Assembly: GCA_964291215.2 (NCBI GenBank) | Contig: OZ219791.1 | Span: 704,001 to 768,000 of the forward strand | Direction of reading: 5' to 3' | From: Alphaproteobacteria bacterium | GTDB lineage: Bacteria > Pseudomonadota > Alphaproteobacteria > MPNO01 > UBA830 | Length of the DNA: 64,000 nucleotides | Shown here: positions 40,722 to 50,412 of the stretch, piece after piece | Numbering within the stretch: the first letter of the stretch is position 1 | Layout of the letters: every line of letters starts with the position of its first letter | Program-made: the position numbers and the translations under genes | The notes under the pieces: generated by a model | Seen by the model: only the letters and a program-made list of their open reading frames with translations | Told to the model about the DNA's origin: nothing | Database searches by the model: none

Positions 40722-41204
40722 TCAGCTTTGCGTAAGTCGGGTCAATCCGCTCACTATGGTGGACAATAGTAACTTTTGAACGAAAGGTGTCCGAAGTAGA
40801 TATCCAATCACTGCACCGGAGATTACACTCAAACCAATCCCTATCGCCACAGGAGTCAATGGATCCACAAACGATAGGCTATCACTTATAGCGTAGAACC
40901 AAGCAATCGGCATCGCTAAACCGATGAGCACATGCACAGCTCGCACGGTTCGCTTAACAAGAAGAGCTAGTCTGCGAATCCTTTTTTCTGTTTCAGCTAA
41001 GTGCGAGAACAAAACGGTTTGTCCTAATGCGGGCCGCGCCACGAAAACGGTTATGTCGCCGTCCAATTGTATCGTGGACTGAATTGCGATGGAGCCCGGC
41101 GCCTCCGCGGATTCAATGACCAAGCCTCCGCGGCAAAGCAGAGCAGCCAAATCCGCGAAGACCGAACACTCTTTTCGCAGATTCGATTCTATGTCTGTTG
41201 TCAC
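40722..41204 (-). CDS. hypothetical membrane protein, paralog C of a three-gene operon
   Basis: 160 aa; QSTIQLDGDI..SH motif shared with its neighbours, followed by two hydrophobic segments. Confidence 0.75.
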   Translation of the reverse strand: MTTDIESNLRKECSVFADLAALLCRGGLVIESAEAPGSIAIQSTIQLDGDITVFVARPALGQTVLFSHLAETEKRIRRLALLVKRTVRAVHVLIGLAMPIAWFYAISDSLSFVDPLTPVAIGIGLSVISGAVIGYLLRTPFVQKLLLSTIVSGLTRLTQS

Positions 41205-41222
41205 GAGCGTCCTAGTGCACTA

Positions 41223-42002
41223 TTACCGCCGAGCGATCAGCCTCGCGAACGCGCCGGTCATTGATACAAGAGTCTCGGCAATCAGTTTCCACATGCGTGT
41301 TCCTGACACGATGCCTTCACGATGGAAATCGAGAAGGACAGCCATTTCTTTGGGCTCCAATCCACTTTGGATCCGATTGATCACGTCTCCCGACAAGGAC
41401 ACGGTGCTCTGCATAACTACTTCCTCCACTCCAATGTCCCAGATTTTGCGAAGGAGGGACATTTCATCAGGGTGAAGGTTTGGTTGGGGATGGCGCCCGA
41501 GAGTCGTCTCTCGATCAAGCAGTTCTCGACGGTTGCAACCTAGAAAATTGTCATTTGAGTTGCGACGCGAACGAGGTCGCTTTTTCAAATTCCTCAGCAA
41601 CCCACGAACTTGATCAGAATTGCGCCTGATCCTCTCGACGATAACTCGATCACGATCTTTGAGATCCAGATAATCTTCTAGGATACGGTAGGCAGCGCGG
41701 CGGAGACGCTGAAACGTATAATCATCGCATCTAAGGGTGCCCCGCTCCACCCTTTCTTGCTGCCAGTGTTGTACATGTACAATGTCTCCCTCTGGTGGAT
41801 TCTGTTCAACGAACGGTGTAGCAAGCGGGATTTTCAAGTCGACCTGCAGCTTGTCGGTGTAGGTCGCAGCAATATCGAGAATCGCATGTCCAGGCGGTGG
41901 CATCTTACGCGCCGTCATGCTGTGCTTAACGATTGTGTTGATCTCGAGCGTCGTTAGATCTCGGGCGGTCAGTTTCAAGCTCTCCCGGACACTCGTCATC
42001 AC
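41223..42002 (-). CDS. hypothetical protein, paralog B of a three-gene operon
   Basis: 259 aa intact ORF with GAGGG RBS; LTTLEINT and QSTVSLSGDV..FH motifs. Confidence 0.8.
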   Translation of the reverse strand: MMTSVRESLKLTARDLTTLEINTIVKHSMTARKMPPPGHAILDIAATYTDKLQVDLKIPLATPFVEQNPPEGDIVHVQHWQQERVERGTLRCDDYTFQRLRRAAYRILEDYLDLKDRDRVIVERIRRNSDQVRGLLRNLKKRPRSRRNSNDNFLGCNRRELLDRETTLGRHPQPNLHPDEMSLLRKIWDIGVEEVVMQSTVSLSGDVINRIQSGLEPKEMAVLLDFHREGIVSGTRMWKLIAETLVSMTGAFARLIARR

Positions 42003-42048
42003 ACTCGTTTCCCTCGCCTAGCCAACCCCGCCGGGTAGCCAACCGAAG

Positions 42049-42375
42049 CTACCCGATATTGCGCAACTGTTTTACAAGGTCGACGATGACTTCGACGTTG
42101 CCCTTAACGATTGCCTGGCCCTTCTCAACCTGGCTCGCGTGAAATCCCCGGATGGGATGCAGTTCCTCGTCCCTCAGGAAGGCCTCGTTGAACGAGTTGC
42201 TGATATCGCCTTGGACCAAGTCGATCTTCGTCTTGATCTCCTTTGGCTCGTTGCCGATTACCGTAGTGGTGATCTCGAGTGTCATGAGATTGACGGCGGC
42301 TTGCTTCAAGTGATCGAGGATTTCCTGCCATCCTCCACCAGCCGCGGTGCCGCCTACCTCTCCGTCGTTTGCCAT
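42049..42375 (-). CDS. hypothetical protein, paralog A of a three-gene operon
   Basis: 108 aa intact ORF with GAGGG RBS; LMTLEITT and KTKIDLVQGDI..FH motifs. Confidence 0.8.
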   Translation of the reverse strand: MANDGEVGGTAAGGGWQEILDHLKQAAVNLMTLEITTTVIGNEPKEIKTKIDLVQGDISNSFNEAFLRDEELHPIRGFHASQVEKGQAIVKGNVEVIVDLVKQLRNIG

Positions 42376-42578: not shown

Positions 42579-44330
42579 TCAAAGGTCAAGGGCCTCGACG
42601 GCATTGGCGCCGAACCAACTGTTCACCGTCTGCAGGGCACCAGGGGGCAGTTCTTGAGTGAAGAGGATAGCTAGTCGTTTCTTCGGCCTTGAGCAGGTGA
42701 CGTAGAAGAGGTTACGATTGCGCTCGAAGGCGTCGTGTCTGTCTGGGGGAATGGAGAGGGGATCGGCCGCCAGTTCGAGCATTTGGCCGAAGTTGTATCG
42801 GTTCCAGCCTCTGCCGACGACCACCAGGACATTGTCAAATTCCGCACCCTTGACACCGTGTTTGGTCTCGAACGGGGAGTGCCCCGAGAGATAGCGGCAG
42901 AGTGCAACGATCTCGCGGTATGGCACGGCGCGGAGTTTCTCGAGCTCTTTCAGCGGGCGAGGCATGACCTCTTCAGCGTCCGGATCGAACTCCCGCAATT
43001 CACGCTCGCGCCGCTCCACAGCATCGGGAACGCGGGGGCGGCGCACTGCAAGCAGGTGCTCCAACACATCGCCGACCGTAGCGCGATCTCGCAACTCGAT
43101 CGTTCTGTCCATGGCTTCGGTCCACTTGTGCTTGTCGTCATGAGCACGGATCGCCGGAACGCTGGAGCCGAGCGCTCGAAACATTTCGCCGTATTTCTGT
43201 GAGAGGTAGGCATTACAGGCAGGTTCCAGAGCGTCGGCGAAGTAGGCGATGTGCGGATGCTCCTTCTTGGTGAAGGTATCGTTGAAGGCGAATACCGCGG
43301 GAATGCTGGGATAGCCTTGCCGGCCTGCGAGGACGCTGTGGGTGAGCATCAGGATTTTGGTGGTCTCGGGAGAGAGGTCCCAACCCTCCAAGTCAAGGCG
43401 GTAGAGGACGGTCTGAAGCGCGTTCTCCGCGGTCTCGGCAGGGAGATCGCCGAGCCAATAGCCGCCGCCGCCGGGGCGGCGTTCGCCAGGCCAAGCGTTG
43501 GTGTGAAAGATGCGGACCTCGCCCTCCGCGTCGGGATCGACGACGGACTGGGGTAGTTCGGGCCGCATGCGGTTGAGACAGTCGACGATGGTCGGAACGG
43601 AGCGAAAGTTCGCCTCCTTGCCGATCACGGTGAGGCCCGGATGGTCGATTTTTCCGCAGCCGTTGCCGTAGATCTTCTGCCAGTGGTCACCGAAGAACCC
43701 GAATTGTGGCGAGTTTGCTCGGCCAAGAAAGTGGTGCTTGATGGAGTCAATCCAGCCGTGGTCCGTGTCCTGGTATTCGTCGATCAGGATGATCGGATAC
43801 TTGTCGGCCAGGATGCTCCTGAATTTGGAATTGCCCATGAGCGCGATGGTCAGGATGAGGACATCGTCGTGATGGATGGAGATGCGGGCGTCGTTGATGC
43901 TTCTGTGCCCGAGCTCGTATTCAACTCGGCGTTCCCCGACGCCGCCGACTTCGGCGAGCTTCTCAGGCCAGTGTTCGAGGTCAGGCAGGCGTTCGCGGAG
44001 CTGTCTCTGGAACCCGACGATGAGTGACCAGCAGAAGGCGTGGATGGTGTTGCAATGGATGATCGGGCTGCGGTCGGTGCGGGCCTCGATTTCGTTCTTG
44101 GCAACATTCGTGAAGGTGATGCAGGCGATCCGTTGGTGGCGTTGCGGCAAGGCGTGACGGTAGCGGTCGATAAGGAATTGCAGCGCCCTCACGAGGGTGT
44201 AGGTTTTGCCGGCGCCGGCACCAGCTTCGACGAGGAAGCTCTCCCCGTGTTCGAGGCAGTGATGGACTTGGTCGAGGGCTCTCTGGCTGGCCTCCTCGGC
44301 CGGGTTCATGGGTTGGACGGGTTCAACCAT
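42579..44330 (-). CDS. gajB: UvrD-like helicase, Gabija GajB
   Basis: AGAGAGKT, DEYQD, FGDHWQKIY, TKHGVKGAEF, FYVTCSR; overlaps the OLD nuclease gene. Confidence 0.85.
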   Translation of the reverse strand: MVEPVQPMNPAEEASQRALDQVHHCLEHGESFLVEAGAGAGKTYTLVRALQFLIDRYRHALPQRHQRIACITFTNVAKNEIEARTDRSPIIHCNTIHAFCWSLIVGFQRQLRERLPDLEHWPEKLAEVGGVGERRVEYELGHRSINDARISIHHDDVLILTIALMGNSKFRSILADKYPIILIDEYQDTDHGWIDSIKHHFLGRANSPQFGFFGDHWQKIYGNGCGKIDHPGLTVIGKEANFRSVPTIVDCLNRMRPELPQSVVDPDAEGEVRIFHTNAWPGERRPGGGGYWLGDLPAETAENALQTVLYRLDLEGWDLSPETTKILMLTHSVLAGRQGYPSIPAVFAFNDTFTKKEHPHIAYFADALEPACNAYLSQKYGEMFRALGSSVPAIRAHDDKHKWTEAMDRTIELRDRATVGDVLEHLLAVRRPRVPDAVERRERELREFDPDAEEVMPRPLKELEKLRAVPYREIVALCRYLSGHSPFETKHGVKGAEFDNVLVVVGRGWNRYNFGQMLELAADPLSIPPDRHDAFERNRNLFYVTCSRPKKRLAILFTQELPPGALQTVNSWFGANAVEALDL

Positions 44331-46374
44331 CGTGGGCCACCGCGGCGTCAGGGGCCTCGAGAATGGGGGCAGCTTGGTCGATTACCGCCCCGTCGTCCGC
44401 AATGTCGCCACGCGCGAGCCATCTCAATCCGTTGACGATGTAGCCCGGTGGGGACCAGTCGGTGTTGTCGATCGCGTGTTTGAGCGCGAACTCGGACTTC
44501 TTGATGGTGTTGAGCTGGTGCCACGCACACTGGGCCTGATCGTCCGGCTTGTCACCTTCGATCCCGAACATGGCTGGATTTGCCAGCATGAACGCGTCCT
44601 CAAAAGTGCGGCCGCATGGACCGCCCTCGGCCTCGGGCCGCTGGTAGGCGATGCGCCGGAGGTTCTGGACCTTCGAGGCGTCGTCTTTGGCGAGGAGGGC
44701 TGCGGGTGAACAGTCGCCGCCACCGAACCAGGATTTCAGACAAGCGTCGCTGGTCGCGGTCCTTTGGTGCACCGGGCAGGTCTTGCGATCAGCGGTGACG
44801 GAGTCGAGGTCGGTGATGATGAGGGTCCGCAGTTCCAGAAAGTCGAGAAGAGCGAAGAAGATGTGCGCGTAGGCACCGCCCACTTCCATCGTCGTCACGT
44901 ATTGGCTGGAGAGTTTGGGTTCAGCAGGCTCGGCAGCCTCCAGCTTGTTAATGATTACGGGCAGCAGCAGGCGCTCGCTCGCGCCTTCGATCAGCACGGC
45001 TTTGTCGGCAAAGAAGAGATCGCAGCGCGTCAGGGTCAGATACTGGTGGAGAAATCGCCTGTGCTCTTCGGGCGTATCGTGCAGCCCTTGGCGGAGATCC
45101 TTGGTTCTGGTGTGGCGCACCCCGTCGACAGACGCAGGGATGAAATAGCGGATTGCCTGGAACCCGGCCGCGTTTGCGACGTGGGAAGAATGGGTCGAAA
45201 CGATGAACTGGACCGGCCACGGCAGGGGAGCACCGTCCTGCGTGCTGAGCTGGTGGGCAATCTTTGAGACCTGGCGGATGAACACTTCCTGCATCTGCGG
45301 ATGCAGGTGGGCCTCGGGCTCCTCAATGAAGACGAGGTGGACTCCAGGCGCGGCCGGTTCAGCGCGGAAAGAGCGATAGAAACTGACTAGCTGGAGCAGG
45401 ATGAAGATAAGGTTGCGTATGCCGAGGCCGGTGTACGACTCCGGTAACTGGATGCCGTGATGGCCGGCGTACCTGACCTTGGTGTGGCGTGAGAGCAAGC
45501 GCTCGATGTCGAGTGTCGTTTCGGTTTCGAGCTCGGAGCCATCGAGACCGGGATAGCCGAAGGAGTGCAATGTCGGCATGAGCTTCTGCAGTTCTTCTCT
45601 GAAACCGCCTTGAATCGTGCTTTGGATATCGCGAACGGCATCCTGGAGTGCTTGGGCGATCAGCTGCTCTTGCTCGTCGGCGGTGGGCGACTGCGCGGCG
45701 GTAAAGAGGCCCTCGAGAATCTTGGCGAGGACATCGGTGTCTCTTGAGGTGTCATCGTCGAGGCCACGCTGGGCATTCACGAAACCTGTTTTCAAGAGCG
45801 AGCGGAGCGCGGTTACGGTCATCTGCTTTCGGTTGGCGTCGTCGTTGGGGTCTTCGGCCCATATGCTGGCGGTAAATAGGTCGGGTACGCGCTGGCGGAG
45901 TTCTTGGAAGAAGGCGATGCGATCGCGGTCGGTGAGATTGCCGGCCGGTTGATCGGCGAACAGCGAATCGATGGCGCCATCTCGCAGCTCGTAGCGCGCC
46001 ACGACCATGGTCTCGTTGCAGTCGGGGTCGAGATCGACGATGAAGTCGCTGAGCGCGCCGAGATCAGGTTGGTTGGGGTCGTAGCGGAACAGGAGTCGTA
46101 GCTCGATGCTCGGAATGAGGGTGCGGACCTCATCGTCAGGGCGCCCGGCACTCTTGGCCGTAAGCGCGTCGCAGAAGCGGTCATAGGAGGTGTTGGAGAA
46201 GTCCTCGATCTGGAACCTGGGATTCTGGTCGGCGAGGAACCGGCGAATTGCCTCGGACAGGGATGTCTTGCCGCTGTTGTTGCGCCCAACGATGAGGGTC
46301 GTCGGAGTTTCCAGCACTAGGTCGGCATCTGCTAAGAGGCGAAAGTTCCTGACTGTGACTTTGTGAAGGTGCAT
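44323..46374 (-). CDS. gajA: OLD-family ATP-dependent endonuclease (ABC ATPase + TOPRIM), Gabija GajA
   Basis: Walker A GRNNSGKT, IEEPEAHLHP, STHS, TOPRIM IEGASE and ITDLD. Confidence 0.88.
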   Translation of the reverse strand: MHLHKVTVRNFRLLADADLVLETPTTLIVGRNNSGKTSLSEAIRRFLADQNPRFQIEDFSNTSYDRFCDALTAKSAGRPDDEVRTLIPSIELRLLFRYDPNQPDLGALSDFIVDLDPDCNETMVVARYELRDGAIDSLFADQPAGNLTDRDRIAFFQELRQRVPDLFTASIWAEDPNDDANRKQMTVTALRSLLKTGFVNAQRGLDDDTSRDTDVLAKILEGLFTAAQSPTADEQEQLIAQALQDAVRDIQSTIQGGFREELQKLMPTLHSFGYPGLDGSELETETTLDIERLLSRHTKVRYAGHHGIQLPESYTGLGIRNLIFILLQLVSFYRSFRAEPAAPGVHLVFIEEPEAHLHPQMQEVFIRQVSKIAHQLSTQDGAPLPWPVQFIVSTHSSHVANAAGFQAIRYFIPASVDGVRHTRTKDLRQGLHDTPEEHRRFLHQYLTLTRCDLFFADKAVLIEGASERLLLPVIINKLEAAEPAEPKLSSQYVTTMEVGGAYAHIFFALLDFLELRTLIITDLDSVTADRKTCPVHQRTATSDACLKSWFGGGDCSPAALLAKDDASKVQNLRRIAYQRPEAEGGPCGRTFEDAFMLANPAMFGIEGDKPDDQAQCAWHQLNTIKKSEFALKHAIDNTDWSPPGYIVNGLRWLARGDIADDGAVIDQAAPILEAPDAAVAHDG

Positions 46375-46489: not shown

Positions 46490-47989
46490 TCAGGTGCATA
46501 GCGCAGATTTCGCGCGGCCGAACCTCATCCGGAGTTGCCGGTAGCGATACCTCATGCGAGTAGCCCAGCTGTCTTGCGGTTCATCGGTGAACGGGTAAGT
46601 GGGCCTTCCGTCTTTGCCGAGTCCTAGTCGTAGGTGCGAGAACTCGCAGCTGGCCACACAGCGGTCCGGGTGCTCAAACGGCTCAGTCTCGGCTTCGACG
46701 AAGCGGTGTTCGAATGACCATCGGCCGGCGGTCGAGGTCCCGTCGTGCCACCAGTCTTCGCCGATCGCGTAGCGCACGAGCATGCGCATCTCCTCAGCCG
46801 CCACCAGGTTGCAGAACGCGATGGTGTTCTGGCCCGGTTCCGGGCCGTCGGGGGCATCGTCGTTGATGTAGCGTCCGTGACGCCGGATGCCCATCCGTTC
46901 ATCTCGAGCATCGCCGCTGGTGTACTGGCCGCGGCACCGCAGGCATTGCATGTCGGGGCCGACCAGGTGGACGCGCCATTTGGCAGAGAGCAGACGGTCT
47001 CGTGATTCCACGAGGACCCCGCCGTCGATCAGGGGTAGGCAGTTTGCGTAGGCAACGTGATTGAGAACTTCGCGCGCCTCGGCATTGTCGACGCAGCACA
47101 TGATGAGGTCCGCGTCGGCTGCGAGGCGGTACGCACGCTCGGTGCGGATCGACAACGGAATCGCGCGAACGATCGGGCGGCGCGCGGTGGCAATTCTGCG
47201 AAGGTGGGCCGCGGCCAGAACCGCCTTGGGCAGTCCGAGGCAGTGCCGGTCAGCGTAGATCAGGCGATCGAGGTTCCTGTCCTCGACGAGGTCGGGGTCG
47301 ATCACGGTGATCTGCTCGAACCCGGTGCGTGCGAGGGATTCGAGGACGATCGAACCGACGCTACCCGCTCCGACGACGCAGACGTGGGTGCGAGCCAGGC
47401 GCGCCTGCGCGTCGATGCCCCAGCTGTCCACGGTGCGCACCAGGCTTGGACGGCGGGCGTAGGGCGGATGGGCGCCCGGAGCCAAGTCCGCGCCCGTGCG
47501 GCGCGGCCCGATCCGTCGAACGTCGCTGCAGTGCGCAGGCGCGATGCGGCCAGGCCCGGATTCCTGCCAGAACCGGGCGCTCCAGACGCCGTCGGAGCCC
47601 ATGGTGAGGCCGAGCAGCGGCAAGTCCGTCTCTCGGACGAAGGGCGCGACGATGTTGCGCTCGGTGTCGTCATCCATGCCGCTCAGGGCCTGCCAGCCGG
47701 GACCAGGATGGCTGTGAAGGACGGCAACGCCTGCCTTCGCCTTGAGCGCGCGATCGAGGACGCGGTTGAGATATCCGCCGTGCACGGTGACGTTGCCGTG
47801 CAGATCCCGGTCGCCGTCTTCCGGCAGAACGATGTCGGCGAGGATCCCCGTATAGCGGTTGAGCCCATCGCCGCGGCGCCAGAGCGCAAGACAAGCCTCC
47901 TCCTGCAGCCCACCGCGGCGCAGCCCGCTCAGGAGGTGATCCGCGAGCTGGCGGTGGAGGGCTTCACGCACTATGACGCGATGATTCAA
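46490..47989 (-). CDS. JAB/JAMM-like peptidase domain fused to a ThiF/E1-like adenylyltransferase
   Basis: N-terminal E..HSHPGPGWQALSGMD; C-terminal GAGSVGS, DPDLVEDRNLDRL, CVDN, CLRC; TTG start overlaps the upstream stop. Confidence 0.88.
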   Translation of the reverse strand: MNHRVIVREALHRQLADHLLSGLRRGGLQEEACLALWRRGDGLNRYTGILADIVLPEDGDRDLHGNVTVHGGYLNRVLDRALKAKAGVAVLHSHPGPGWQALSGMDDDTERNIVAPFVRETDLPLLGLTMGSDGVWSARFWQESGPGRIAPAHCSDVRRIGPRRTGADLAPGAHPPYARRPSLVRTVDSWGIDAQARLARTHVCVVGAGSVGSIVLESLARTGFEQITVIDPDLVEDRNLDRLIYADRHCLGLPKAVLAAAHLRRIATARRPIVRAIPLSIRTERAYRLAADADLIMCCVDNAEAREVLNHVAYANCLPLIDGGVLVESRDRLLSAKWRVHLVGPDMQCLRCRGQYTSGDARDERMGIRRHGRYINDDAPDGPEPGQNTIAFCNLVAAEEMRMLVRYAIGEDWWHDGTSTAGRWSFEHRFVEAETEPFEHPDRCVASCEFSHLRLGLGKDGRPTYPFTDEPQDSWATRMRYRYRQLRMRFGRAKSALCT

Positions 47990-48411
47990 CGCGCACTCCA
48001 GATTCTGCGGATGTGCTTGTTCAGGTAGGCTTCCATGTTCTTGCCGTTCGGGGTGTCGATCTGATCCCAGAAGTCGCTCGGCGGAGCGCTAATTGCCATC
48101 CAGTCGAGACCGTCATCGCACTGGAAGATCTGGATGGCGCCCGGGGAGTGAGACCCCTTTACCAGCTCCTCTAGGACGGGGTCGGGGGGCGAGAGGTAAA
48201 GCCAATGGGGTGCAACCTCGGGCCACTCGCCCTCGTTCTGGTGCATCGCGAGTGCCAGGGTCACGGTCTCCCCCGCGCGGCTGCCGTCCTCGATCCGGTA
48301 AGGGAAGCGGACGCCGTCCGCGCCGCCTTGCTGCTCGGGCGCCGCGAACGGGCTCGTGTCATAGCGCAGCGCGGCGAGTTCGGCAGCAATGCGCTTGGAA
48401 TTGTTGCTCAT
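47986..48411 (-). CDS. prokaryotic E2/UBC-like protein
   Basis: 141 aa from MSNNSK; FPYRIEDG, WPEVAPHWLYL (YP..PP-like), W.AIS.P...W; lies between Ubl and E1 with ATGA/TTGA overlaps. Confidence 0.65.
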   Translation of the reverse strand: MSNNSKRIAAELAALRYDTSPFAAPEQQGGADGVRFPYRIEDGSRAGETVTLALAMHQNEGEWPEVAPHWLYLSPPDPVLEELVKGSHSPGAIQIFQCDDGLDWMAISAPPSDFWDQIDTPNGKNMEAYLNKHIRRIWSAR

Positions 48412-48650
48412 GCGAATGGCGCACCCTTCTCCGGAGCGGCCCGAAATACGTTGTACTTGTCGAGGTCGACCACTTGTCCAGAGACGAAGGTGAGGTCGGA
48501 GTCCGGTACTCTCAGCACGTACCCAGTCTTGTCCGGGTCCTCGCCGATGGCCTTGCCGGCGAAGGTGATCTGCAACAGAACGGCAGCATCGACGGCCTGC
48601 TGTTCGGCGAAGAAGGTCTCGCCGTTCACCTTGAATTCGAACTTGTCCAT
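48408..48650 (-). CDS. ubiquitin-like (multi-ubiquitin type beta-grasp) protein
   Basis: 80 aa; FKVNGE, YVL and VVDL..F pattern; GAGG RBS; first gene of the E2/E1 operon. Confidence 0.7.
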   Translation of the reverse strand: MDKFEFKVNGETFFAEQQAVDAAVLLQITFAGKAIGEDPDKTGYVLRVPDSDLTFVSGQVVDLDKYNVFRAAPEKGAPFA

Positions 48651-48739: not shown

Positions 48740-48775
48740 GTTTACATTACCACGCTATATGTATATCTTGTCAAC
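48740..48775. promoter_or_regulatory. overlapping divergent promoters / candidate XRE operator
   Basis: Plus strand TTTACA-N17-TATCTT; minus strand TTGACA at 48774-48769; the two -35 boxes form the imperfect IR GTTTACA..TGTCAAC. Confidence 0.55.
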
Positions 48776-48802: not shown

Positions 48803-49882
48803 ATGTTCGGACAACGACTCCGACTCGCCCGGAAACGGGCAGGTCTATCGATGCGGGAGCTCGCGGACGCGATGAGCCTGAAGGTGACCGCTCAGGCGAT
48901 CAGCAAGTACGAGGCGGGCAAGATGCTGCCCTCCTCGGCCGTGCTTGTCGGTCTCGGGAAGGCTCTCGACGTCTCGCTGGACTTTCTGATGAGCGCGCAA
49001 GTCGAGGCGCTCGAGGCGGTCGAGTTCCGCAAGCATTCCCGCGCGTCGGCCCGCGATCGCGCAAGGGCCGAAGCAGAGGTGATGGACAGCCTAGAGCGCT
49101 ACCTAGCGATCGAACACATCCTCGACATCGAGTCCAGCGTCGAATGGGTGGAGGGGCGCCGCTACGACAGCGTCGCGAGCGAATCCCAGATCGACGAGCG
49201 GGCCGACGAACTGCGCAGGGTCTGGGATCTCGGCCTCGACCCGATCCCCAGCTTGTGCGAGTTGCTCGAAGACAAGGGAATCAAGGTGGTGGAAGCCGAT
49301 CTCCCGGAGAGCATCAACGGGCTCTCGTGTCACGTTCTCCGGGGCGGCGAGATCGTCGCCGAGGCCGTCGTCGTGTCCAGCCGGATCAATGTGGAGCGCA
49401 AGCGCTTCACGCTGGCCCACGAGCTCGCGCACAGGATCATCCGCTCCACCGGCAATCCGGCGATCGACCTCGAACGGGCGATGAACCGCTTCGCCGGTGC
49501 GTTTCTGGTTCCCGGCCAGAGTCTTCGGGACGAAGTCGGCGCTGATCGCCACAGGATCACCCATTACGAGATCGTCTGCCTGAAACAAATCTACGGCGTG
49601 TCGGCCGCGGCCCTGCTGATGCGTCTCGGACAGGTGGGCGTACTGTCCCAAGGCTCTGTACAACATGCCTTCGCGACCTTCGCCCGGTCCTGGCGCAAGT
49701 CGGAGCCGGATCCGATCCGCCCCGACCATGGGTTCGCGGCCTTCGAGAAGCCTCGTCGCTTCAAGCGGCTTGTCTCGCGCGCGGTGGGCGAGGAACTGAT
49801 CTCACCCGTCCGTGCGGCCGCGCTTCTCAACCAGTCGCTCGAATCGGTCGAGCGGCAGATCAGCGGTCCTGCCATCCAGTGA
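48803..49882 (+). CDS. XRE HTH fused to an ImmA/IrrE metallopeptidase
   Basis: RLRLARKRAGLS..AISKYEAG HTH; RFTLAHELAH (HExxH); strong GGAGG RBS. Confidence 0.92.
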   Translation: MFGQRLRLARKRAGLSMRELADAMSLKVTAQAISKYEAGKMLPSSAVLVGLGKALDVSLDFLMSAQVEALEAVEFRKHSRASARDRARAEAEVMDSLERYLAIEHILDIESSVEWVEGRRYDSVASESQIDERADELRRVWDLGLDPIPSLCELLEDKGIKVVEADLPESINGLSCHVLRGGEIVAEAVVVSSRINVERKRFTLAHELAHRIIRSTGNPAIDLERAMNRFAGAFLVPGQSLRDEVGADRHRITHYEIVCLKQIYGVSAAALLMRLGQVGVLSQGSVQHAFATFARSWRKSEPDPIRPDHGFAAFEKPRRFKRLVSRAVGEELISPVRAAALLNQSLESVERQISGPAIQ

Positions 49883-50412
49883 CCTGCGTCATCGTCAACG
49901 ACGCTTCGTGCTTGATCGACCTCCGTAAGGGAGGCCTGCTGGGCGTCGTTTGAGACCTGCCCTATCGGTTGGTGATCCCGTTGCCCGTGCGGGCTTTGGA
50001 AGTGCTCGACCTTTCGGAGGCCGAATGGCAGGCGCTCGACGAGGCCGGCATGATCACGCACGACCTGACTCTGGAGGAGGTCGGTCAGGCGTTCGCGGTG
50101 AAGAGGCGTCATGCGGGACTCTCCGCCAACGACTGCTTCTGTCTGGTCACGGCACGGATCTATCCGGGCATCCTGCTCACGGGCGACGCCCTACTGCGCA
50201 AGGTTGCCGCAGCGAATGGACTGCGGGTGCACGGCGTGCTCTGGGTGGTCGACGAGCTTGAGGCTGCAGCCGTTTGCAGCAGATCGCTTCTGAGTCGGGC
50301 GCTCAAGGCATGGCAGTCGGACGAGTCGGTGTTCCTTCCCCCGCACGAAATCAGCACGCGGCTTGAGTACCTGGCGAAAGCCGGGTCTCGGAGAAGCAGC
50401 GAAAATCGCTGA
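49879..50412 (+). pseudogene. PIN-domain protein with an in-frame TGA at codon 25
   Basis: GTG overlaps the regulator stop; reads VTCVIVNDASCLIDLRKGGLLGVV*DLPYRL..; LSANDC, LLTGDALLR and VHGVLWV are PIN motifs; TGA at 49951-49953. Confidence 0.8.

Follow-up and report, generated by a model that had tools for sequence, protein, structure and literature searches.

A ubiquitin-like protein (Ubl) that does not end in Gly, encoded beside E1- and E2-like proteins that have no Cys at the expected sites, raises the question of which Ubl residue is activated and through which side chains it might be passed on. We analyzed such a set of genes in a stretch of 64,000 nucleotides from Alphaproteobacteria bacterium (GenBank assembly GCA_964291215.2, contig OZ219791.1, positions 704,001 to 768,000 of the forward strand), which we call the window and number from its first letter. 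The genes form a conserved operon that resembles bacterial Bub conjugation operons, has no adjacent bubE gene, and encodes a Ubl whose likely working end is its natural C-terminal Ala.

The operon recurs across phyla and is under purifying selection

The operon consists of three genes, all on the minus strand:

48408..48650, minus strand: Ubl gene (BubA-like), 80 amino acids (aa), one predicted beta-grasp domain, C terminus FRAAPEKGAPFA
47986..48411, minus strand: E2-like gene (BubB-like), 141 aa, predicted UBC fold, with an ATGA overlap with the Ubl stop
46490..47989, minus strand: JAB peptidase-E1 fusion gene (BubCD-like), 499 aa, with a TTG start that overlaps the E2 stop

The coupling of the three genes proposed in the initial annotation was borne out in the minus-strand sequence, where an ATGA overlap joins the Ubl stop to the E2 start and a TTGA overlap joins the E2 stop to the JAB-E1 start. 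A scan of 185,579 species genomes yielded 31 related loci at 72 to 95% identity, all of them in metagenome-assembled genomes, titled Alpha- and Gammaproteobacteria, Latescibacterota, Gemmatimonadota, Acidobacteriota, Spirochaetia, and Binatia. The gene order was the same in these loci wherever the module was intact. All 29 rows having a Ubl end among the close loci showed a stop codon with a −3 overlap between the Ubl and E2 genes, and neither a Ubl-E2 fusion nor a frameshift was seen in the close clade. Comparison with nine relatives gave dN/dS values of 0.05 to 0.39 for Ubl, E2, JAB, and E1. Since the gene set recurs in 31 loci, the overlap is found in 29 of 29 rows, and dN/dS is low, the arrangement is more than chance: the operon is real, and its parts are under purifying selection.

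Among the relatives of the host, 3 of 61 genomes, the host counted, had the E2 gene. This patchy presence and the high identity across phyla suggest that the operon is a mobile cassette. Insertion sequence (IS) elements surround it. Two samples of more distant loci were also drawn. For plasmids, 16 of 220 records with matches were inspected and eight actinobacterial loci were examined; for metagenomes, the sample was the top 80 of 268 matches. No relative of the module was found in viral contigs, and the records of a phage collection gave only weak partial ThiF-like matches, in 11 of them. Only a small share of the window was present, as contigs, in one RNA run, a result that does not bear on expression. 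A genome of the same genus (G002) has three divergent copies of the operon (L141 to L143), the L143 copy with a broken JAB-E1 gene. On a Terrarubrum plasmid (L049, 2558-4326), a Ubl-like gene is followed directly by JAB-E1, with no E2 or BubE annotated between or after them.

Predicted folds match Bub proteins

The nearest solved relative of the 499-aa protein was Citrobacter BubCD (E value of 2.6e-21), with the JAB and E1 domains both aligned; BubCD belongs to the Citrobacter type I Bub system (Ye et al., PMC11601596; PDB 9EA4, 9EA8, 9EAE, and 9EAV). Searches of PDB sequences with the Ubl and E2, as single sequences or as profiles, returned nothing meaningful, and neither protein belonged to a family in Pfam, PADLOC, or NCBIfam. 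ThiF was the sole Pfam match over the cut-off in the module.

Both small proteins were recognized through their predicted structures. The AlphaFold2 (AF2) model of the Ubl, with a predicted local distance difference test (pLDDT) score of 80, is a beta-grasp whose best VIA match was 8u38 (Z 8.5, root mean square deviation [rmsd] 2.9, 72 aligned). Its best matches were bacterial multi-ubiquitin proteins and Citrobacter BubA chains, and BubA chain 9ea8_B was matched in Foldseek with a probability of 1.00 and an E value of 3.3e-3. For the E2 model (pLDDT 90), the best of 48,161 chains was Citrobacter BubB (VIA Z 8.3, rmsd 3.9, 118 aligned), and the next VIA matches were eukaryotic E2 (UBC) enzymes. 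The Z values are moderate, yet nearly the whole match list represents one fold, and the models agree with the two folds whose absence would have refuted the initial annotation, a beta-grasp for the Ubl and a UBC fold for the E2. Foldseek alone gave no match at an E value of ≤0.001 for either model and ranked BubB third and weakly for the E2 (E value of 0.12), behind a kinase. The ESM Atlas supplied leads only: Prok-E2_E at 0.93, a recognition below the reliable range, and Multi_ubiq at 0.90. A predicted complex of the E1-domain dimer with ATP and Ubl had a score of 0.02 and a mark of 0.32 and yielded no tail geometry. With BubCD as the nearest solved relative, the BubB and BubA fold matches, and the E1 tree described below, the earlier designation of the operon as a Bub-like variant holds.

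A Tyr and a Ser occupy the predicted catalytic positions

According to a preprint (Ye et al., bioRxiv 10.1101/2024.11.21.623953; below, the Bub preprint), conjugation in Bub systems relies on oxyesters of a Tyr in E1 (Y370) and a Ser in E2 (S333). Because this chemistry is already published, the missing Cys residues are no new puzzle. The relevant features in the window are as follows:

46604..47467, minus strand: E1 adenylation domain (about residues 175 to 462), with G207-x-G209, D231, N239, R242, K255, and D301
C349/C352 and C444/C448: putative Zn site in the E1 domain, in the CLRC and CVASC motifs
46868..46870, minus strand: codon of E1 Tyr374 (R-Y-I), the predicted catalytic crossover-loop Tyr, aligned with the G-Y-I Tyr of type I BubCD (Citrobacter Y370)
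48088..48090, minus strand: codon of E2 Ser108, the predicted catalytic Ser, aligned with the Ser of type I WSRH (Citrobacter S333)
48205..48207, minus strand: codon of E2 His69 (P-H-W motif), the likely partner of Ser108, aligned with the type I BubB Asp (D299)

The loop after CLRC has no Cys and two Tyr residues, 356 and 374. The initial annotation had described such a loop and was silent on which Tyr matters. Position 374 is Tyr in 30 of 30 ungapped close rows, in 86 of 86 ungapped distant rows, and in the four type I rows. Tyr356 was rejected as the catalytic residue because its position is Leu, Ile, or Val in 88 of 88 distant rows. The residues of the ATP site are kept throughout the alignments. 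C349, C352, and C448 are highly conserved in the branch to which the operon belongs and mostly not in type I BubCD. A CxxC...C arrangement is the structural Zn pattern of ThiF/MoeB and lies away from the catalytic position.

In the E2-like protein, His69 and Ser108, the latter within W104-M-A-I-S108-A-P110, are invariant (104 of 104 close rows and 25 of 25 diverse rows). Of 113 E2s, 111 had the P-H-(W/F) motif and 105 had W-x-x-x-S. The sole Cys of the protein, Cys97, falls outside the conserved columns. A joint alignment showed that the S-x-H His of type I E2s is absent here, with S108-A-P110 instead; type II Bub E2s have Lys plus His (Bub preprint). The motifs that the initial annotation had listed, namely, the Ubl end, the Ser in W-M-A-I-S-A-P, the E..HSH..S..D of JAB, and CLRC/CVASC, are all present.

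The terminal Ala is the likely working end of the Ubl

Two codons near the 3′ end of the Ubl gene are at issue:

48411..48413, minus strand: codon of Ala80, the likely mature C terminus and activated residue, aligned with the type I BubA Gly
48423..48425, minus strand: codon of Gly76, the last Gly, conserved only within the close clade, where trimming would have to expose it

The Ubl ends in APEKGAPFA, and the initial annotation had allowed either that JAB trims APFA or that E1 activates the Ala, with conservation of the C terminus as a check. Close relatives are not decisive on this point, since GAPFA ends 120 of 120 close Ubls among the matches listed (286 matches in total). The distant samples were more informative. 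All eight actinobacterial plasmid Ubls end in Val-Ala, and four of them have no Gly after the last strand. Tails were readable at 70 of the 80 metagenome loci (nine had no Ubl match, and one was unreadable); their last residue is Ala in 57, Glu in 9, Val in 2, and Gly in 2, and 47 contain no Gly. Among 45 distinct tails, 41 end in Ala and 21 are without Gly, which, where present, wanders from position −6 to −1. The geometry of these tails is regular, with a length from the last-strand Phe of 10 (33 tails) or 11 (12 tails) and a penultimate Val (34 tails) or Phe (11 tails). When four type I BubA proteins from loci that carry bubE were included in a joint alignment, their Gly fell in the column of the terminal Ala.

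More distant relatives within the genus point the same way. The tails of the three G002 copies, whose E2s are of the window's subtype, end in TEVA, TPVA, and TPVA, and one of them is Gly-free. Nine matches were longer E2 relatives, of which seven are in-frame Ubl-E2 fusions, 41 to 83% alike; their junction reads TPVA, and the residues that follow are unconserved. The other two, P0250 and P0252, resemble E2-CD read-throughs with a frameshift and were excluded. By analogy with BubAB, JAB would cut the fusions after the Ala. As for ends other than Gly in known systems, an Escherichia coli type II BubA that ends in Ser was conjugated in vitro (Bub preprint), and the C-terminal residue of type II CBASS cyclases is Gly or Ala (PMC10449767).

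The best-surviving alternative, which we nevertheless consider unlikely, is that JAB first trims the tail, by APFA to expose Gly76 or by three residues to expose the small residue at position −4, which E1 would then activate, as in Bil and in type I Bub operons whose BubA is separate. Each of the 21 close Ubls compared has Gly76, a Gly lies six residues before the junction in 7 of 7 fusions, and position −4 is Ala, Gly, or Ser in all 48 tails distinct per group, being Thr in the fusions and in the three copies of G002. JAB is intact, two type I BubA proteins (L039 and L048) have a Gly plus a short extension, and in Bil, JAB is described as removing up to nine residues that follow a conserved Gly of the Ubl. 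A terminal Ala after the conserved Gly is reported to block the ATP site in Bil, where it must be trimmed. Also weighing against activation of Ala80 are an 11-residue tail in the window Ubl versus 10 in type I BubA, the reported loss of CBASS function upon a Gly-to-Glu change at the CD-NTase end, and the metagenome loci ending in Glu (9) or Val (2). A classical E1 cleft would hardly accommodate a Glu or Val end. Against trimming, 21 of the 45 distinct tails offer no Gly to expose and its position is unfixed in the others; removable extensions vary in length, whereas the tails here are fixed at 10 to 11 residues; the type I BubA Gly aligns with the terminal Ala and not with Gly76; in two relatives the terminal residue is itself Gly; and the fusions are conserved up to the Ala and not beyond. 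The tails, the alignment, and the fusions thus favor activation of the Ala over trimming of APFA, and on balance Ala80 is the likely working end of the Ubl.

The Glu-ended sub-lineage comprises nine metagenome loci (L074, L086 to L088, L091 to L094, and L099) with the Ubl end HSAPVE, and it is a natural test of E1 tolerance.

No bubE gene adjoins the operon

The Bub preprint states that "All Bub operons possess bubE," a gene on which the initial annotation was silent. We built a BubE profile from five proteins and applied it to loci with a JAB-E1 frame end and at least 600 nt downstream. None of 103 such loci (31 close, 8 plasmid, and 64 metagenome loci, some of the close frames being broken genes) had BubE beside it. 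As a control, the profile found BubE at five type I loci outside its seed. The published Bub catalogue was selected on DUF6527-containing operons (Bub preprint), and a branch without bubE would therefore have been left out of it by design.

In an E1-domain tree of 40 rows, the 27 bacterial rows without bubE formed a single branch (100/97), separate from the 7 bubE-carrying rows sampled. Three halophilic archaeal rows formed the sister of this branch (97/77, not starred). The tree was midpoint-rooted, with no true outgroup (none was found in the host genome), and six chosen rows without the anchor motif were dropped (L073, L076, L108, L113, L115, and L139). The archaeal rows have the same three-gene layout, on plasmids (L041, 3153-5485; L046, 2098-4623; L047, 1717-4461). 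Their first genes end in QVFI, GSGRS, and EGGVV, and the loop Tyr is not cleanly aligned in them.

One observation weighs against a system that does without BubE: the host genome encodes, on another contig, two BubE-family (DUF6527/PF20137) proteins that could act in trans. At the first of these places (L032, 1357-3053 of G000:C1), a type II BubBD-like E1 is followed by a DUF6527 gene; the second DUF6527 match (L033, 1333-1833 of G000:C1) lies elsewhere in the genome.

The JAB domain is intact and may reverse conjugation

47495..47989, minus strand: JAB/JAMM domain (about residues 1 to 165), with E30, H92, H94, S103, and D106 intact, under purifying selection

JAB residues E30, H92, H94, and D106 match E28, H91, H93, and D104 of BubCD. 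In ungapped distant rows, the Glu was kept in 81 of 83 and the two His and the Asp in 86 of 86, and the dN/dS of the domain was 0.07 to 0.16. Unfused operons have no precursor to cut and yet keep JAB intact, so that a role as a deconjugase is the simplest reading. The window operon has no pro-peptide to remove, and JAB may thus cut after the Ala and serve as the off-switch, the role that BubE fills elsewhere. This step is weaker than the rest of our proposal because data from Citrobacter point the other way: conjugates formed there despite an intact JAB, and the authors think that the Citrobacter JAB mainly matures the precursor (Bub preprint).

It could be instead that Ala80 is conjugated as proposed and that JAB is a maturation enzyme or a structural domain, with removal absent or carried out by BubE from elsewhere. 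The failure of the Citrobacter JAB to stop conjugate build-up, the need of the fused Ubl-E2 relatives for a maturing JAB, and the two DUF6527 matches over the cut-off in the host genome speak for such an arrangement. The counts and dN/dS given above, in operons with nothing to mature, argue against it, as does the mobility of the module across phyla without an adjacent bubE, and we give it a low probability. A JAB that removes the tag remains our preferred, if less secure, reading of the domain.

A divergent regulator-like gene and defense genes flank the operon

48741..48774, no strand assigned: back-to-back promoter-like sites between the operon and the divergent regulator
48803..49882, plus strand: divergent HTH-XRE and IrrE/M78 peptidase fusion, 359 aa, a likely regulator or antitoxin travelling with the operon
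49879..50412, plus strand: PIN-domain gene coupled to the HTH-M78 gene, with an in-frame TGA at 49951-49953 (codon 25)
42579..46374, minus strand: Gabija genes gajA (44323-46374) and gajB (42579-44330), neighbors outside the module

Among loci with enough flanking sequence, the HTH-M78 gene was found upstream of the operon in 25 of 26 close, 6 of 8 plasmid, and 13 of 50 metagenome cases. It resembles CapH/CapP-type regulators and RmrA antitoxins alike. Between it and the operon, GTTGA is invariant in 15 aligned loci (minus-strand TTGACA at 48774-48769), and the plus strand has a promoter-like TTTACA-17-TATCTT. We infer that the HTH-M78 protein controls the operon and may repress it until stress or infection; its low count in the metagenome loci, 13 of 50, weighs against this. 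The PIN-domain gene is intact in many relatives and shortened or disrupted in several others, and together with the HTH-M78 gene it has the look of a toxin-antitoxin or regulator module carried along with the operon.

The Gabija pair is complete (PADLOC E values of 1.6e-280 and 2.2e-257) and lies 115 nt downstream of the JAB-E1 gene. We rejected it as part of the module because gajA is directly downstream in 3 of 31 loci. Past Gabija, three open reading frames (ORFs) of lower GC content (108, 259, and 160 aa; 40722-42375, minus strand) had no match in Pfam, PADLOC, or NCBIfam and are possibly further defense genes. The Bub preprint reports that no Bub operon was found to protect against phage. 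A possible link of the present operon to defense is at most hinted at by its context: Gabija adjoining, HTH-M78/PIN upstream, and a patchy distribution.

Relation to known systems

Type I Bub (formerly 6E.1) consists of BubAB, BubCD, and BubE, and type II (6E.2) of BubA, BubBD, and BubE (Bub preprint). Iyer et al. (2006) described a 6e operon with a metal-binding partner gene. In at least 31 type I operons of Table S1 of Ye et al., Ubl and E2 are encoded separately, so that neither the three-gene split nor, given the Bub Tyr/Ser chemistry, the missing Cys is new.

[quoted passage not shown] It differs in having no adjacent bubE, an Ala where BubA ends in Gly, a His at the D299 position of the E2 with no S-x-H His (type I has the Ser with a His at +2 and an upstream Asp), and an E1 that keeps the CxxC...C motif and falls in a separate, supported branch. 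Like type II Bub, as in E. coli ZDHYS365, it has a stand-alone Ubl with a non-Gly end (Ser there) and probably uses Tyr/Ser oxyester chemistry; unlike type II, in which E2 and E1 are fused as BubBD, usually with no JAB and with BubE, its E2 is separate, its JAB is fused to E1, and bubE is missing. With Bil (types I and II, BilABCD; Chambers et al., bioRxiv 10.1101/2023.09.26.559546) it has in common Ubl, E2, JAB, and E1 in one operon, the lack of an E3, and a location in defense regions. Bil alone relies on catalytic Cys residues, in E2 and in the CYS domain of E1; its JAB stands alone and is described as exposing a universally conserved Gly of the Ubl. CBASS Cap2/Cap3 of type II resembles it in an E1 reported to take a C-terminal Gly or Ala and a JAB peptidase reversing the conjugate; the CBASS substrate, however, is a cyclase and not a beta-grasp, and its E2-E1 is fused and Cys-based.

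By these comparisons, the module probably works like Bub. With no bubE, no terminal Gly, and no type I E2 motif, it is a member of neither type I nor type II, and its sequences mark it as a putative bubE-less, Ala-ended variant with a His/Ser E2. We found no description of a bubE-less branch in the literature searched, which covered few subscription papers; the peer-reviewed Bub paper, cited as Ye et al. 2026 in PMC13373217, may add types.

Proposed mechanism and meaning

We propose, as the probable explanation overall, that the operon encodes Bub-type tagging without bubE. E1 would activate the natural C-terminal Ala80 with ATP, without trimming, and the tag would pass from E1 Tyr374 to E2 Ser108 as oxyesters, His69 probably activating Ser108 in place of the type I Asp plus S-x-H. 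The tag would then be attached to lysines of target proteins, from which JAB would likely remove it. Adenylation, the Tyr/Ser oxyesters, and E3-free conjugation to lysine are carried over by homology from published Bub biochemistry. That no lysine is conjugated at all, and that adenylation of the Ubl by E1 serves to transfer sulfur (as with ThiS/MoaD) or to build a non-covalent sensor complex, or else that E1 forms a Cys thioester, is very improbable: the lone ThiF match, the conserved C349, C352, and C448, and the lack of family matches for Ubl and E2 would fit, but the Ubl has no Gly-Gly end, the module has no sulfur-metabolism genes, an E2-fold gene with invariant His and Ser is coupled to it, a conserved Tyr occupies the proven Bub position, and the Cys residues are of the structural Zn type, outside the catalytic position.

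A broader reading is more tentative, its chances slightly short of even. The bubE-less branch may be a third Bub type whose range takes in Actinomycetota-like bacteria and at least six further bacterial lineages and whose sister group is found in halophilic archaea. Its E1 would read the penultimate Val or Phe instead of a terminal Gly, so that Ala-ended tags, and in sub-lineages Glu- or Val-ended ones, would be conjugated through Tyr/Ser oxyesters and a His-Ser E2. JAB would both mature the fusions and erase conjugates after the Ala, and BubE would thus be unnecessary.

Since cysteine-free chemistry is already known, the surprise is limited. The branch is common: it is represented by 31 loci from genomes, by the 8 plasmids examined, and by the top 80 of 268 matches in metagenomes. 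It offers a minimal three-gene system with culturable hosts, such as Rhodococcus and Nocardioides. It bears on whether an E1 can take a non-Gly ubiquitin-like tag as its normal substrate, on how oxyester conjugation may be reversed without BubE, and on what Bub pathways do.

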